A stretch of DNA of 28,554 nt from Burkholderiaceae bacterium (GTDB lineage Bacteria > Pseudomonadota > Gammaproteobacteria > Burkholderiales > Burkholderiaceae_B): assembly GCA_035302965.1 (NCBI GenBank), contig DATGSD010000116.1, positions 1-28,554 on the forward strand, read 5' to 3'. Shown here in pieces: positions 4,819 to 27,542 of this stretch. Numbering within the stretch: position 1 is the first letter of the stretch; every line of letters starts with the position of its first letter. Under the pieces are notes generated by a model. It worked only from the letters and a program-made list of their open reading frames with translations, had not been told where the DNA came from and did no database searches. The position numbers were made by a program, and so were the translations under genes.

Positions 4819-6024
4819 GTGACGGCTTGGTTTCGTTATAGTACAGCCATCGCATTGGCGGTGGCTGTCTTGCTTTCGGCTTGGGCCGTTACCGACCTTC
4901 CTCAAGAAGGGCGTGTATTGGCCTTTTCTATTTTGTCAGGCGCGGCCTTTGGCTTTGTTTTGCAACGTTCCCGCTTTTGCTTTTATTGCATTGCACGCGA
5001 TTACTTCGAATTTCGCGACGCCAATGGCTTGCTAGGGCTGCTACTAGCACTCGGGGTAGGCTTAGTCGGTTATTACGTATTATTTAGCGTTTTTTCACCG
5101 ACACCGGTTGCGGGGCGTTTGCCGGCTGGGGCACACATCGGACCGGTCAGCTGGGTGCTAGCCGTTGGAGCGGCCACGTTCGGTTTTGGAATGGCGTTGG
5201 CGGGCTCATGCATTAGCGCGCATCTATACCGTTTAGGCGAAGGTTCGTTGGCGTCTATTGTGGCACTATTGGGCGCTATTATTGGTTTCGGTTTGGGTTT
5301 TGCGTCTTGGAACCCTTTGTATTTAGCCACCATTCACGATGCGCCCATTGTTTGGTTGCCGCACCGCTTGGGCTACGGCTGGTCGTTATTAATACAGCTG
5401 GTTGTGTTGTTTGCCCTGGCTGCCGTGTTGTTAAGGGGCCATCGAGCACCTAACAATTCAAACAAACCGTCACCCCTTATGTCGGCCGAGCCTAATTTTC
5501 GCCGCCTTGGTCATGTATTGTTCGCTCAGCGTTGGCCAACCTATGTTGGCGGCTTATTAGTGGCAGTCATCGGCGTCATGGCTTTTTTGCGCAGTGGTGC
5601 TTTGGGAGTCACCGCCGAACTGGGTAGTATCGCGCGTACAACCGCGGCTAATTTCGATTTATTACCAGCTCGCTTGTTCGGCTTAGATGGTTTTGCGGGT
5701 TGTGCCACGGTGGTAAAACAAACCTTGTTGTCGCGCAACGGCTTATTTGTTGTGTTTCTAATAGCGGGTTCGTGGTGTAGTGCCCTTTTGGCAAACGAAT
5801 TCCGCCTGCAGTGGCCATCGGGCACCGCTTTGTTGCGCAATTTCGCCGGCGGCGTACTAATGGGCTGGGGCGGTATGCTGGCCTTAGGCTGTACAGTGGG
5901 TACCTTGCTGTCTGGCATTATGGCCGGCGCCTTATCGGGGTGGTTATTTGCAGTTTTTTGTTTTCTTGGTGCTTGGCTAGGCTGGAAGCTTAGAAAAACT
6001 GGTCTAAATAAATTTGTTAATTAA
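4819..6024 (+). CDS. yeeE: YeeE/YedE-family sulfur-compound (thiosulfate) transporter
   Basis: Polytopic, Gly-rich; RSRFCF, GMALAGSCISAHLYRLGEGS and GGMLALGCTVG motifs carry the family's three Cys positions. GTG start 12 nt after the rhodanese stop. Confidence 0.88.
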   Translation: MTAWFRYSTAIALAVAVLLSAWAVTDLPQEGRVLAFSILSGAAFGFVLQRSRFCFYCIARDYFEFRDANGLLGLLLALGVGLVGYYVLFSVFSPTPVAGRLPAGAHIGPVSWVLAVGAATFGFGMALAGSCISAHLYRLGEGSLASIVALLGAIIGFGLGFASWNPLYLATIHDAPIVWLPHRLGYGWSLLIQLVVLFALAAVLLRGHRAPNNSNKPSPLMSAEPNFRRLGHVLFAQRWPTYVGGLLVAVIGVMAFLRSGALGVTAELGSIARTTAANFDLLPARLFGLDGFAGCATVVKQTLLSRNGLFVVFLIAGSWCSALLANEFRLQWPSGTALLRNFAGGVLMGWGGMLALGCTVGTLLSGIMAGALSGWLFAVFCFLGAWLGWKLRKTGLNKFVN

Positions 6025-6896: not shown

Positions 6897-8177
6897 ATGT
6901 CTGTTGATGTCTTAACGTTTGGGCTTAATCATGTTTCGGCACCGCTAGCGGTGCGCGAGCGGGTGTCGCTGCCCGTCGATCTTTTACGCCCGGCGCTCGA
7001 TGGTTTGCGCAGTGCGTTTGGTTCGTCGGTGCGCGAAGCGGCCATTTTGTCCACCTGCAACCGCACCGAGGTTTATTGCGCGGCCGAGCCCCATATTGCC
7101 GACCAGCTGCCGGCCTGGATGGCCGATTTTAATCGGCTCGAGTCGGTTAGTTTGCAGCCCCATTTGTATCGTTATCAACACAACGAGGCGGTGCGCCACG
7201 CGTTTCGGGTGGCTAGTGGGCTCGATTCGATGGTGGTTGGCGAGCCCCAAATTCTTGGGCAAATGAAAGATGCCGTGCGAGCCGCTACCGAGGCAGGCTC
7301 GCTCGGAACTCTGCTGCATCAGTTGTTTCAGCGTACATTTTCAGTGGCCAAAGAAGTTCGTTCACATACGGCTATTGGCGCGCATTCCGTGTCTATGGCC
7401 GCTGCTGCTGTGCGTTTAGCCGAGCGCGTTTTCGACGACCTTAGCCAAGCCAATGTTTTATTTATTGGCGCCGGCGAAATGATCGAGCTTTGCGCTACCC
7501 ATTTTGCTGCACGTCAGCCTGCAAGAATGGCGGTTGCTAACCGTACAGCCGAAAGGGCCCAAGTGTTGGCCTCGCGTTTTAATGCCGATACCTTGCGCCT
7601 TGCCCAATTATCAGAAAGCTTGGCCGACTTCGACGTTGTGGTGTCGTGTACGGCAAGTACGTTACCCATTTTAGGCTTGGGCATGCTCGAGCGCATAACG
7701 CGTCTGCGTCGCCACCGCCCCATTGTTATGGTCGATCTGGCCGTGCCGCGCGATATCGAAGCCGAAGTCGGTCGCTTGCCCGACATTTACCTTTACACGG
7801 TCGACGATCTTGGTCGCATGGTGCAAAGTGGGTCGGAGGCGCGTCAAGCAGCGGTTGTGCAGGCCGAAGCCATTATCGATGCCCGTGTTAAAAACTTTAT
7901 GCACTGGCTAGAAAACCGCGAAATCGTTCCTACCCTAGTTGATATGCAAGAAACAGCCGAGCAACTTAGTGCGGCCGAGGTCGAAAAAGCCCAACGCTTG
8001 TTGGCTCGTGGGGTAGAACCTAGCGAAGCTTTGCGGTATTTGGCGCGCAACCTAACACAAAAATACATGCACGGCCCTTTGTCTGAACTTAATCAAAGTA
8101 GCCCTGCCCAACGCGAACAATTATTACAGCTGTTGCCGCGGCTTTTGCCCGACCCTAACGCACCCCGTCGGCGCTAA
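6897..8177 (+). CDS. hemA: Glutamyl-tRNA reductase
   Basis: [57 protein letters not shown]. Start placed at ATG 6897 by family N-terminus; the ORF track gives 6864. Confidence 0.97.
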
Positions 8178-23018: not shown

Positions 23019-23084
23019 TTCTGTCTATCGCTAACCTGGGCGTTTTCTTAACGGGCCACAGGCTCAATGTTACGGAGAACTCCC

Positions 23085-23906
23085 ATGAGACCAAGCTTCG
23101 ATTGCGCTGTCATCAATACCAATGTTACCCACGATTGGGCACGCCAAGCGCTGGCTGCAATAGCGCCTAGCAGTCGTGTTCATTTAAAGTGGTCGTTGCC
23201 GCTCATCGATTGCGATGCGCCTAATTCGTCTCAGGCGCTATGTCAAGCTTCAATGCAATTGCGCAGTTTTGACGCCTGTTTATTGCCAGTGGTGCAACAT
23301 AACCTGCCTTGGGTGCGTACTGCATTGCTAGCGGCAAGAGGCCGTTTACATACGCCGGTAATTGCCTTGGTAAACGATTTGGCCGCAGTCGCGATTAACG
23401 ATTTGTTTCGTCTTGGTTTAGCCGATTTTATTCGGACGCCGATTACCTCAGACGATTTGCGCATACGTATTCAGCGCTTATTTGTAAGTCCGCAAGAAAC
23501 CGTTGTCCAGCCACTAACCGACAGCGGTTTCCAAGTGGCAGAACCGAGTTTGGTAAGCGGTTATAGTAACGATGATGCATTCACGGGAGACCCCCTGATC
23601 GACCGCTTGTTTTCATCTAGCGGTATTGCCCTAAACGCTTTGGCTATGGCCGCGGTTTCAGAAAGCGTGCATTATCAGCAGTCATTTCGTGAACTAAAAG
23701 GTAAAATCGTCGAAGCCTTCGAGCGTACGTATATTCGCGCCTTGCTAAAACGCCATTCAGGCAATATAGCGATGGCGGCTCGCACTGCCCAAAAGCATCG
23801 CCGAGCATTTTGGGCGCAAATGCGAAAATACGACATCGATGCTGCCGTTTTCCGAAATCATAAACCGTGTGCCCCGTACGAATCTGAAGATCGGGGCTTA
23901 AACTAA
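23085..23906 (+). CDS. Atypical regulator: degenerate receiver-like domain plus C-terminal Fis-type HTH, no AAA+ domain
   Basis: DACLLPV / TPVIAL / GLADFIRTP follow the receiver beta3-beta5 pattern; C-terminal [32 protein letters not shown] is an NtrC/Fis-type HTH. ATG 23085 has GGAG 7 nt upstream. Confidence 0.75.
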
Positions 23907-23914
23907 GGATTATC

Positions 23915-24994
23915 GTGTCAACTAGTGCCTTAAAAAATGATGTCTTTATTCGGGCGCTTAAACGCCAGCCTGTTCCGTATACCCCGGTTTGGGTTATGCG
24001 CCAGGCCGGACGCTATTTGCCCGAATATCGCGAAACCCGTGCACGCGCGGGCTCGTTTCTGCAGCTAGCGCAAAACCCCGACTATGCTTGCGAAGTTACT
24101 TTGCAACCGCTAGAGCGCTTCCGACTCGATGCTGCCATTTTATTTTCTGATATTTTAACCATCCCACATGCCATGGGCTTGGGGCTCGATTTTGTTGCAG
24201 GTGAAGGCCCACAATTCGATTATCCGGTACGTACAGAAGACGATGTGCGCAACCTAAGCGTTCCCGATATGGCTAAACTGCAATACGTGTTTGATGCCGT
24301 TAAGCTTATTCGCCGCGAGCTCGATGGTCGTGTACCTTTAATTGGTTTTGCCGGCAGCCCCTGGACGGTTGCTTGCTATATGGTCGAGGGGCAGGGCAGC
24401 CGCGACTACCAACATATTAAAACCATGTTGTATGCGCGCCCCGACTTGCTCCATCGCGTGTTAGCCGTTACCACCGAAGCGACCATTCAGTACCTAAATG
24501 CCCAAATCGATGCGGGTGCGCAAGCTATTATGGTTTTTGATAGTTGGGGTGGTGTTTTGGCCGATGGGCTTTTCCAAGAGTTTTCTTTGGCTTACATTCG
24601 CCAAGTTTTGGCCGGCTTACGCCGCGAACACAACGGCGAAACCGTGCCTCTTATTGTCTTTACTAAGGGCGGCGGTATGTGGCTAGAAGATATCGCCGAT
24701 TGTGGTGCCGATGCCATGGGCGTCGATTGGACCGTTAACTTAAGTCAAGCCCGTCAACGGGTTCAAGATAAAGTGGCTTTGCAAGGCAACCTCGACCCGA
24801 TGGCCTTGTTCGGTAACGAGGGCAGCTTACGTGCACAAGTACGTCGTGTTATCGACGATTTTGGCCCCGTTGGCAAGGGCGGTCATGTCTTTAATTTGGG
24901 CCATGGCATTTCGCGCTTTACCAAGCCCGAAGCGATGGAAATTTTAGTTGACGAAGTACACAGCTATAGTCGCCACAAGCACGAAACCGCGTAA
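23915..24994 (+). CDS. hemE: Uroporphyrinogen decarboxylase
   Basis: [52 protein letters not shown]. Confidence 0.98.
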
Positions 24995-25087
24995 CCCCAT
25001 GGCCGGCAAGGCTTTTACGCTTTAATCGATTTAAATTTGTGCGCTGACCACGTCTATTTTGCTGCAGCGCACGGCATTTAAGCGTGG

Positions 25088-25285
25088 TTTTGCACAGGCT
25101 TGGCATAAGTATTACTTAGAAGCTTTATTTAAAATCTACTTTCATACAGCTGCATAAGCTATTGATTTTAAATAATAAATTGCGTGGTTTTGGCTGCTTT
25201 TGTACATAGGGCGTGTTTTCGACTGAATTTTCCCCAACTTGTTCAAGCAGTTCTCCCCAAAGTTATCCACAGGCCTTGTGGGTTA
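25088..25285. promoter_or_regulatory. DnaA-box cluster with AT-rich tract (candidate oriC, datA/DARS-like element or DnaA operator)
   Basis: TTTTGCACA 25088-25096 and TTATCCACA 25263-25271 match TTWTNCACA; degenerate boxes at 25228, 25239 and 25251; inverted box TGTGGGTTA 25277-25285. Confidence 0.75.
25155..25167 (-). promoter_or_regulatory. IHF binding site
   Basis: Minus strand AATCAATAGCTTA is an exact match to WATCAANNNNTTR, with an A/T tract on its 5' side (25168-25180). Confidence 0.65.
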
Positions 25286-25340
25286 TTCGGCCAAAGCTAT
25301 AAGGAGTAAGGCTTTGGGGTGTTTTTAGAGCAAAATTTTT

Positions 25341-27542
25341 ATGACTTTGAGTGCCTCTACCGATGTTTCGTCAACTAATTACTGGTTGCGAGTTGCGCTC
25401 AATGTCCCTTTAAGAGGTTTGTTCGATTATCGGTCTGAGCAGGCCGTTGCAGTAGGGCAGCGGGTTATTGTTCCTTTTGGTCGGCGCAAATTAATTGGTG
25501 TGGTTATTGAAACCCCCGATCAACCCCATTTTCCGCCCGAACAAATCAAGGCGGTCGATCAGGTTTTAGACGATTTACCGCCTTTCTCAGACGATTGGAT
25601 GCGTTTGGCGCGCTTTGCAGCCACTTATTACCACCGTTCGCTTGGCGAGGTTATTCTCCCGTCCTTGCCAACCCACCTGCGGCGTGTCGGAAGTTATCAA
25701 GGTAAGCGTTCTGGGGCTGGTCCGGTTGCACGCTACGACAAACGACAGCAAGCGGCTGACGCGAAAGAACAGGAAGCTGAACAGGCAAGGGAGGCAGAAG
25801 AAACAACGGAGGTAAAGGAAGCAAGGGCGGCGGAAAAAACGAGTGGAACGAAAGAAGTAAAGGGCTCGATTTCAGACTTCGTCAAGAGCGCTAACGTGGA
25901 CGAGGCCCACTTAAATAGCGAACAGGAATATGCGGTGGAACAGGTGCGAGAGTCGCAGGGCTTTGCACCATTTTTGCTTTACGGAATTACTGGTAGCGGT
26001 AAAACCGAGGTGTATCTACGTCTTGCACGCCACTATTTAGCGCTGGGCAAGCAAGTTCTGTTTATGACGCCCGAAATTAACCTGACGCCACAGCTTCAGC
26101 TGTTATTACACAAGCGCTTTGCCGACTTAGCGCAAAATCAGCAGCTAGCGGTTTTGCATAGTGGCTTAAGCGATGGCCAGCGTTTAGATGCTTGGTTACG
26201 AACCTCGCGAGGTGAAGCCAAGGTGCTTTTGGGCACCCGCTTAAGTATTTTCACGCCTATGCCCGATTTGGGCTTAATTATTGTCGATGAAGAGCACGAC
26301 GCTTCGTATAAACAACAAGAAAGTCTGCGTTATTCAGCGCGCGATTTAGCGATCTGGCGCGCTCACGATTTAAAAATTCCCGTTGTCTTGGGTTCAGCCA
26401 CGCCCTCTTTAGAAACCTGGCGTCACGCTCAGCGTGGGCACTACCAACAGCTAACCTTAAGTAAACGAGCGCGGCCGGTTAGCTTGCCGTCCATCCGTTT
26501 ACTCGATATACGTCGCGAAAAGCTCGAACAAGGCTTTTCACCTAGGTTGCTACAAGCTATTCAAGAGCGCTTAGACAAAAACGAACAAAGCTTAATATTT
26601 TTGAACCGTCGTGGCTTTGCTCCCGTATTGCGTTGCCATTCTTGTGCCTGGGTGTCACGTTGCGTGCGTTGTACGACGTTTGTCGTTATGCACCAAGCAG
26701 GCAGTTGTAATTATCTGCAATGCCACCATTGTGGTTATCAGAGCCGCGTTCCGCCAGCTTGCCCCGATTGTGGCGACCAAGATTTACAACCCATGGGGCG
26801 CGGAACACAGCGGGTAGAAGATTTTCTGGCGCAGACTTTTCCGCAGGCGCGTGTCTTGCGCATTGACGCTGACAGTACGCGGCGCAAAGGTCAGGCTGAA
26901 GCCTTGTTTGCCAAAGTCTATTCTGGCGAAGTCGACATTTTGGTGGGCACACAAATGGTGGCTAAAGGTCACGATTTTGCCAACCTAGGCTTGGTAGGTA
27001 TTTTAAATACCGATGCCATGTTGTTTTCGCAAGATTTTCGTGCGCCCGAACGCTTATTCGCTCAGCTAGTTCAGGTGGCTGGGCGAGCAGGCCGCCACAC
27101 CGAGGCTGCCGATGTGTTGGTGCAAACCGAGTATCCCGACCAAGCGGTTTACCAAGCGTTGTGCCAGCACGATTACCCGGGTTTTGCGAATTATGCGCTT
27201 GAAGAACGCAAAGCGGTTGGCTTACCCCCTTATGCGTATCAAGCACTGCTAAGTGCGCAGGCTAGAGCCTTAAAGCAAACGCTAGAGTTTCTAAGCTTGG
27301 CTCGCGATCTTCCGCTTGAGCAGCCTGATAATTACCCAAGCTTTGATGCCATTTTTATTTACGACCCCGTGCCATTGCGCATTGTTCGCGTGGCCAATAT
27401 CGAACGTGCTCAGCTTTTGGTAGAAAGTGCCAACCGCGCAGCCCTGCAAAGCTTTTTAAACCAGTGGTTGCCGCAGCTCGAGCCTTTGGCTAAAAAGACA
27501 CGGGTGCGTTATTACCTTGAAGTTGATCCGCTCGAAATTTAA
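25341..27542 (+). CDS. priA: Primosomal protein N' (replication restart helicase PriA)
   Basis: VIVPFG 3'-binding domain, GITGSGKTEVY, PEINLTPQ, DEEHDASYKQ, GSATPSLE, four CxxC pairs, GTQMVAKGHDF, QVAGRAGR. Confidence 0.98.
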   Translation: MTLSASTDVSSTNYWLRVALNVPLRGLFDYRSEQAVAVGQRVIVPFGRRKLIGVVIETPDQPHFPPEQIKAVDQVLDDLPPFSDDWMRLARFAATYYHRSLGEVILPSLPTHLRRVGSYQGKRSGAGPVARYDKRQQAADAKEQEAEQAREAEETTEVKEARAAEKTSGTKEVKGSISDFVKSANVDEAHLNSEQEYAVEQVRESQGFAPFLLYGITGSGKTEVYLRLARHYLALGKQVLFMTPEINLTPQLQLLLHKRFADLAQNQQLAVLHSGLSDGQRLDAWLRTSRGEAKVLLGTRLSIFTPMPDLGLIIVDEEHDASYKQQESLRYSARDLAIWRAHDLKIPVVLGSATPSLETWRHAQRGHYQQLTLSKRARPVSLPSIRLLDIRREKLEQGFSPRLLQAIQERLDKNEQSLIFLNRRGFAPVLRCHSCAWVSRCVRCTTFVVMHQAGSCNYLQCHHCGYQSRVPPACPDCGDQDLQPMGRGTQRVEDFLAQTFPQARVLRIDADSTRRKGQAEALFAKVYSGEVDILVGTQMVAKGHDFANLGLVGILNTDAMLFSQDFRAPERLFAQLVQVAGRAGRHTEAADVLVQTEYPDQAVYQALCQHDYPGFANYALEERKAVGLPPYAYQALLSAQARALKQTLEFLSLARDLPLEQPDNYPSFDAIFIYDPVPLRIVRVANIERAQLLVESANRAALQSFLNQWLPQLEPLAKKTRVRYYLEVDPLEI

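Follow-up and report, generated by a model that had tools for sequence, protein, structure and literature searches.

Few parts of the E. coli cell cycle are understood as well as the control of the initiator's nucleotide state by non-coding DNA sites. The sites are datA, the locus of datA-dependent DnaA-ATP hydrolysis (DDAH) in the glyVXY–queG gap, and the DnaA-reactivating sequences DARS1 and DARS2, in the bioD–uvrB and rppH–mutH gaps, respectively. Gln208 of E. coli DnaA is the residue specifically needed for DARS-dependent ADP release, through a head-to-head contact. The function of datA is reported to depend on the spacing around its IHF site (PMC10380432), and the head-to-head boxes I and II of DARS, 5 bp apart, are reported to be essential (PMC6868365). 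A double DnaA box is occupied by E. coli DnaA in vivo at polA, nrdA, purH, uvrB, datA and DARS (Stringer, Fitzgerald and Wade 2024, PMC11317965). In the literature that we found, datA/DARS control is documented for E. coli and its near relatives only, and conservation of DARS2 is reported only for E. coli-proximal species (PMC4245941, PMC8682772, PMC5742627). Our literature search found no description of DnaA boxes upstream of priA in beta-proteobacteria, nor of datA/DARS-like sites in beta-proteobacteria or elsewhere outside the relatives of E. coli.

Here we analysed the gap between hemE and priA in a member of the Burkholderiales. With moderate confidence we read it as an extra-origin DnaA–IHF element of the datA/DARS kind, leaning towards datA in its likely action. 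An earlier note on this DNA had offered two alternatives, an oriC located away from dnaA or a datA/DARS-like control locus; the first is refuted by the data below, whereas the second is favoured by a geometry that is conserved across genera, families and orders.

The hemE–priA gap and its conservation

The window analysed is an entire contig of 28.5 kb, taken from a fragmented assembly (376 contigs, 1.94 Mb, GC 0.50, 89% complete). It carries the atp operon, a gene for a 279-aa Fis-type helix-turn-helix protein, hemE, a gap of 346 bp, priA and rep, all on the + strand. The 279-aa protein (window 23067–23906) has a weak C-terminal Fis-type helix-turn-helix (HTH_8, 20.8 bits), and its gene lies directly 5′ of hemE in at least three relatives. 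The features of the gap and its flanks are as follows, with distances counted from the start of box II.

23915–24994, + strand: hemE (uroporphyrinogen decarboxylase), the upstream neighbour; TIGR01464, 436.8 bits
25088–25096, + strand: upstream DnaA box U, TTTTGCACA; two mismatches to TTATCCACA; −175
25155–25167, − strand: predicted IHF site AATCAATAGCTTA; exact match to the consensus WATCAANNNNTTR; −108
25228–25236, + strand: weak DnaA box TTTTCCCCA; two mismatches; −35
25239–25247, + strand: in-phase site TTGTTCAAG; four mismatches, by sequence no box; −24
25251–25259, + strand: DnaA box III, TTCTCCCCA, the upstream half of a double DnaA box; two mismatches; −12
25263–25271, + strand: DnaA box II, perfect TTATCCACA, the anchor of the module; position 0
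25277–25285, − strand: inverted DnaA box I, TAACCCACA (the + strand reads TGTGGGTTA); two mismatches; +14
25341–27542, + strand: priA (primosomal protein N′), the downstream gene; NF004067, 932 bits; start codon uncertain by about 10 codons
25344–25350, + strand: ACTTTGA, the local version of motif GAGAATYYACTTTAAGT near the priA start, conserved in relatives

The module spans about 200 bp (25088–25285), with 3 bp between box III and box II and exactly 5 bp between box II and inverted box I. Direct reading and a scan placed boxes at 25088, 25228, 25251, 25263 and, inverted, at 25277, just where the earlier note had put them, and its exact IHF consensus at 25155–25167 was borne out on the minus strand. 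One of its descriptions stood only in part. Of four same-strand boxes said to lie at 11–12-bp steps, those at 25228, 25251 and 25263 are boxes whereas TTGTTCAAG at 25239 is not; despite its four mismatches, this position is conserved (GTTGTT) and in phase among relatives. The gap is AT-rich as described (GC 0.39–0.43, against about 0.52 in the flanks), and GATC is absent from 23889 to 25518, which agrees with the claim that the gap has none. The AT-rich tract surrounds the IHF site; the suggestion that its stretch at about 25105–25180 is weakly DnaA-trio-like gained no support. An 11-mer, GCGTGGTTTTG, occurs twice (25083–25093 and 25183–25193), exactly 100 bp apart and flanking the IHF site, with its first copy overlapping the upstream box. 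A scan of 24900–25450 against Rfam, at E up to 1, returned no RNA family.

The motifs are more frequent than expected. The gap holds five boxes with at most two mismatches, against about 0.9 expected, and perfect DnaA boxes number only 13 in the assembly. The IHF consensus WATCAANNNNTTR has three matches in the window, against 1.1 expected. Across the assembly, the spacing of box pairs peaks at 5 bp for converging and at 3 bp for tandem boxes.

Synteny of hemE and priA is conserved family-wide. A check of conservation across Burkholderiales, which the earlier note had proposed, found the module in this gap in 16 of 20 relatives, which belong to different genera, with boxes and IHF site kept at fixed geometry. 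The perfect TTATCCACA is present on the priA strand of the gap in 18 of the 20, and in 16 it is surrounded by a nearly invariant 23-mer, TT(T/C)TCCCCA-AAG-TTATCCACA-GG, of which box III, TT(T/C)TCCCCA, and the AAG spacer are invariant. Box U (TTRTNCACA) is found on the same strand at −174 to −178 in 16 of 20, and the opposite strand carries the IHF consensus between −108 and −110, with an exact match here and in six relatives. Of the weaker sites, a box-like sequence at −34 to −36 occurs in several relatives and GTTGTT at −26 to −19 is conserved in at least half of the 16, whereas the DNA between the sites of the module is unconserved. Inverted box I behaves differently: it is absent from the other 15 hemE–priA gaps checked in the family of this genome, which keep the rest of the module, and is present at the priA copies of five families (four besides this genome's). 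In one complete relative of 2.0 Mb the hemE–priA gap is reduced to 59 bp, without any box.

DNA nearly identical to window positions 24300–26300 was present in public runs of soil, compost and manure metagenomes from 12 studies. A metatranscriptome contig of another organism carries the identical double-box 21-mer at the same distance after its hemE.

Copies of the module at other loci

To survey the order we searched 401 genomes for the double-box 21-mer with one mismatch allowed, using the reversed sequence as a control. Matches were found in 25 genomes, against none for the control. They lie upstream of priA, whether hemE is present or absent, and by exbB/xseA, lpxK/xseA, metG, minC, a parA-like gene, comM, dnaA and gidA. 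The full layout was found at priA in five families and at the unrelated loci exbB/xseA, lpxK/xseA, metG, minC, the parA-like gene, comM and three unidentified loci. Except for the dnaA and gidA sites, where the double boxes have no IHF site at about −109, the copies share one frame, in which U falls between −174 and −189, the IHF site near −109 (range −99 to −111), box III at −12 and box II at 0, often with an inverted box at +14. Exact IHF matches in copies away from hemE–priA fall at −107 to −111. In other copies box U is more distant by one or two helical turns (about −188 or −198); positions of −176, −188 and −198 step by helical turns, which fits what a looped complex would require.

At class level (beta- plus gamma-proteobacteria in the genome taxonomy used), we searched for a perfect box II separated by 94–98 bp from the exact IHF consensus in the given orientation, with the reversed pattern as control. 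This exact-match search hit 120 of 401 genomes (about 30%), against one control match. Among 11 copies that were fetched, nine have the whole module (U, IHF, III, II and I) and two are partial. Three of the 11 precede priA; two of these come from other orders, and the other, a hemE–priA copy, comes from a different family of this genome's order.

Within the assembly the arrangement box, 3 bp, box, 5 bp, inverted box (9-3-9-5-9) occurs four times, and it did not occur in any of 20 shuffles. One of these cores is that of hemE–priA; the others are:

Contig C214, 1628–1865: second full module, between sodB and exbB-exbD-lpxK; U at −198, exact IHF site at −110; core CTATCCACA-TAA-TTATCCACA-GCTTC-TGTGGATAC
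Contig C228, near 1524 and near 5235: two bare cores, 3.7 kb apart, without an IHF site at −109

In three complete relatives the xseA/exbB gap, about 80% along the replichore, contains the orthologue of the C214 copy, and each of the three has both a priA copy and an exbB–lpxK copy; the chromosomal position of the priA copy in relatives ranges from 18 to 45% of the replichore. The 2.0-Mb relative that lacks the priA copy retains the lpxK copy. The bare cores lie between an ORF and a TetR-family gene and between the genes for malonyl-CoA synthase and galE, respectively, and have about 35 bp in common with each other. A dispersed or mobile repeat was considered and rejected: in a blastn comparison of three module regions with the assembly only the box cores were in common, and the copies are therefore not a mobile repeat.

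Two further arrangements were observed. In another family of the order, two identical TTTTCCGCAAAGTTATCCACA copies 189 bp apart lie upstream of priA, so that the module's right arm is duplicated where the upstream box would be. In contig C13 of this assembly (7208–7391) an AT-rich gap that lacks DnaA boxes carries three exact matches to the IHF consensus, all on one strand and spaced by about 85 bp, and one of them has an 18-mer in common with the IHF site of hemE–priA.

Comparison with E. coli elements and competing explanations

We measured the datA, DARS1 and DARS2 layouts on the E. coli sequence NC_000913.3; the names of the datA boxes (7, 2, 3 and 4) were inferred from review text. In datA as in the hemE–priA module, DnaA boxes of one orientation flank a single IHF site, whose consensus reads on the other strand, and both loci combine a double box with an accessory inverted box. 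Counted start to start, the perfect box of datA is 65 bp from the IHF site and the IHF site 97 bp from the next box; the equivalent distances are 67 and 96 bp here and 67–68 and 97–98 bp in relatives, with the same relative orientations. Both loci also lie in the origin-proximal half of the chromosome, datA at about 20% of the E. coli replichore and the priA copy of relatives within the range given above. They differ in that datA has its perfect double box on the far side of the IHF site and a head-to-head pair 3 bp apart on the near side, whereas here the perfect double box is gene-proximal and followed by the inverted box at 5 bp. E. coli has one copy of datA, against several copies of the module per genome here. 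The likeness concerns the sites, beyond which there is no sequence homology.

The right-hand end of the module resembles DARS. The DARS1 core, TAATACACA, 3 bp, TTATCCACA, 5 bp and inverted AGTGGATAA, is identical in layout to 25251–25285, and the cores of DARS1 and DARS2 (NC_000913.3 813107–813141 and 2969135–2969169) both follow the same 9-3-9-5-9 rule. In all of them the middle box is perfect or near-perfect, the tandem box weak and the third box inverted; the three boxes here have 2, 0 and 2 mismatches. DARS2, too, carries its IHF-like site on the side of box III and has a core directed at the start of a gene close by (rppH there, priA here), but the site here is one helical turn further out (−108, against about −99), and an upstream same-strand box stands in place of the Fis sites and box V of DARS2. 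Taken as a whole, the module looks like a hybrid with a datA-like left arm and a DARS-core-like right arm, although the two loci to which the arms are likened have opposite effects in E. coli. A spacing that matches datA and a core that matches DARS1 and DARS2 point to the datA/DARS-like locus that the note had proposed.

A purely regulatory role is a possible, if less likely, reading. On this account DnaA and the IHF bend would repress or activate a priA(-rep) promoter, with no catalytic effect on DnaA beyond ordinary titration, and replication-restart capacity would then follow initiator status. The unit TT(T/C)TCCCCA-AAG-TTATCCACA-G is the one found at the DnaA-regulated polA, nrdA, purH and uvrB of E. 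coli, where the polA, nrdA and purH double boxes use an AAG or GAG spacer (PMC11317965). As in those double boxes, 3 bp separate the two 9-mers, of which the downstream one is perfect and followed by G (PMC11317965); the spacer, AAG, is that of polA and nrdA, and the position is 5′ of a replication or repair gene, although priA is not listed among the E. coli targets in that study. The module also follows priA where hemE is missing, other orders included, and its core lies always 70–130 bp before a gene start and aims at that gene. Here box II starts 78 bp before the priA ATG. In 11 genomes the GAGAATYYACTTTAAGT motif is 61, 62, 72 (in six of them), 73, 74 or 81 bp from box II; the distance is phased in steps of about one helical turn (61/72/81 bp), which fits a plain operator at least as well as the reading that we prefer. 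In these 11 genomes GAGAATYYACTTTAAGT itself lies just before the called priA start or overlaps it, with no obvious ribosome-binding site.

RNA contigs from a compost metatranscriptome, which cannot show transcript starts, cover hemE to 25032 and priA from 25292 and leave the module uncovered, a pattern that would be weak evidence for an operator; the depth is a shallow 5–9, and there is a second hole inside priA. Against a role as operator only, a consensus scan of 24850–25500 found no sigma-70 promoter. The same spacing over about 200 bp precedes genes unrelated to replication, such as exbB-exbD-lpxK and metG, and bare cores lie near a tetR-family gene and galE, which have no replication link. 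Unlike the E. coli double boxes, the one here is set in a larger fixed frame, and the distal box and IHF site at fixed distance are traits of datA and DARS2 rather than of the DnaA-regulated promoters of PMC11317965. Terminator-like matches in 24850–25500 fell only inside hemE and priA. A hairpin at 25292–25319 followed by a T-run was rejected as a terminator or attenuator, its folding energy being no better than that of shuffles (z −0.48).

A DARS-type reactivator, which would be a variant nested within our preferred reading, seems unlikely. Here ADP-DnaA on the head-to-head boxes I and II, assisted by box III and IHF, would release ADP and be recharged with ATP, promoting initiation. The exact DARS1/DARS2 layout of weak box, 3 bp, perfect box, 5 bp and inverted box speaks for it, as do the IHF site on the box III side (at −108 rather than about −99), the presence of box I in nine of the 11 class-level copies and upstream of priA in five families, and a gene for a small Fis-type protein in the genome. 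Yet box I, essential in E. coli DARS, has been lost at hemE–priA in most close relatives, being missing from all 15 other gaps checked in the family, and has two mismatches here. In the DnaA protein, Arg285, Phe239, Lys243 and Leu290 are kept, but Gln208 is not conserved: it is Ala in this genome and Ser or Ala in six relatives. The change at Gln208 and the loss of box I in close relatives lead us to lean towards a datA-like rather than a DARS-like element.

The hemE–priA gap is not oriC, and that it could be the chromosomal origin or a second origin is very improbable. Its anchored box array, IHF site and AT-rich tract do recall the left half of E. coli oriC (R1, IHF, R5M-tau2-I1-I2), in which a box and an IHF site are likewise followed by weak sites of the same orientation at 11–12-bp steps, and no dnaA is nearby, as in some bacteria with an origin distant from dnaA. 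With 376 contigs the assembly is too fragmented for whole-genome skew, and the evidence comes from complete relatives, in five of which dnaA lies 0.3–0.75 Mb from hemE–priA. We sampled GC skew in 20-kb windows in two of the complete relatives (3.85 and 3.19 Mb). The 3.85-Mb relative has hemE–priA at 495 kb, inside a stretch of positive skew that reaches from 0 to 1.02 Mb; the skew turns negative only before 3.78 Mb, and the switch is near 3.83 Mb. In the 3.19-Mb relative hemE–priA is at 15 kb, within a stretch of negative skew that extends from 3.0 Mb, past position 0, to 720 kb; the switch there is at 735–740 kb. The switch is thus 0.5 and 0.72 Mb from hemE–priA, and in both relatives the densest clusters of near-perfect boxes are at the switch, 16–20 kb from dnaA. 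With the skew switch and the densest boxes near dnaA and 0.5–0.7 Mb from hemE–priA, the earlier proposal of an oriC away from dnaA falls.

Other observations agree. On this contig the skew does not switch at the gap, with +0.035 on its left and +0.038 on its right; the flanking genes are all on one strand, so that gene orientation does not switch across the site either, a point that the note had itself held against oriC. The gap ranks only about eighth among the DnaA-box clusters of the assembly, the top cluster being on the dnaA contig. Unlike an origin, the module is not unique, several copies being present per genome, and the boxless 59-bp gap of the 2.0-Mb relative makes it dispensable there. 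The module accompanies priA even without hemE as a neighbour, and the link that had been drawn to alphaproteobacterial origins adjoining hemE is rejected on that ground. An AT-rich gap of 692 bp that follows mnmE, at a distance of 4.6 kb from dnaA, contains the strongest cluster of the assembly (contig C194, 9444–10135), with two perfect and three one-mismatch boxes. This cluster is a candidate origin, but GC skew does not switch over its 13-kb contig. It has the 12-mers ATAAGCTATTGA and TTATCCACAGGC in common with the hemE–priA gap.

Last, that degenerate motifs have clustered in an AT-rich gap by chance is the least credible explanation and already refuted by conservation: although only one of the five boxes is perfect, the other four having two mismatches, and the assembly contains as many as 4822 such 9-mers, the sites are conserved position for position in at least 16 genera, the core layout was seen in 0 of 20 shuffles and the class-wide pattern gave 120 matches against one in the control. 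The motifs of the gap are real, not chance.

A possible mechanism and its meaning

On our preferred reading of the gap as a datA-leaning element, DnaA bound first at the perfect box II would recruit more of the protein to inverted box I, box III and the weak in-phase sites at −24 and −35. The same-strand weak sites at 11–12-bp steps suit a head-to-tail oligomer of ATP-DnaA. IHF would bend the DNA sharply at 25155–25167, which would bring DnaA bound at box U against the DnaA oligomer at the core, and the looped complex would act on the cell's DnaA pool, like datA and DARS in E. coli. We favour the datA direction, in which the complex may capture ATP-DnaA and stimulate hydrolysis of its ATP, restraining re-initiation. 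Since the core is some 80 bp upstream of priA, the complex would probably also couple expression of this gene to DnaA status. In favour of the reading as a whole, the genome encodes IHF alpha, Hda and a small Fis-type protein, and its DnaA has conserved Arg399 as well as Arg285, the arginine finger that ATP-DnaA oligomers would use at a datA-like site. The same 200-bp frame before genes without a replication link argues for an autonomous nucleoprotein complex.

A wider reading, which we offer tentatively and hold to be rather improbable, is that the module represents an ancient, multi-copy, class-wide DnaA–IHF switch of beta- and gamma-proteobacteria, with E. coli datA and DARS2 as its diverged descendants, and that the two copies of this family divide labour. 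The priA copy (18–45% of the replichore), in which box I is mostly lost, would be an off-switch, and the exbB–lpxK copy (about 80% of the replichore), in which box I is kept, an on-switch. If this were so, replication of each copy would time the DnaA cycle.

Clusters of DnaA boxes with an IHF site do not by themselves identify origins, and this site probably misleads prediction software too. The role of the module is directly testable in cultured Burkholderiales, and its geometry would supply a simple sequence rule for finding such sites. Kept across beta-proteobacteria and in about 30% of the class genomes sampled, it would mean that the datA/DARS principle is general.
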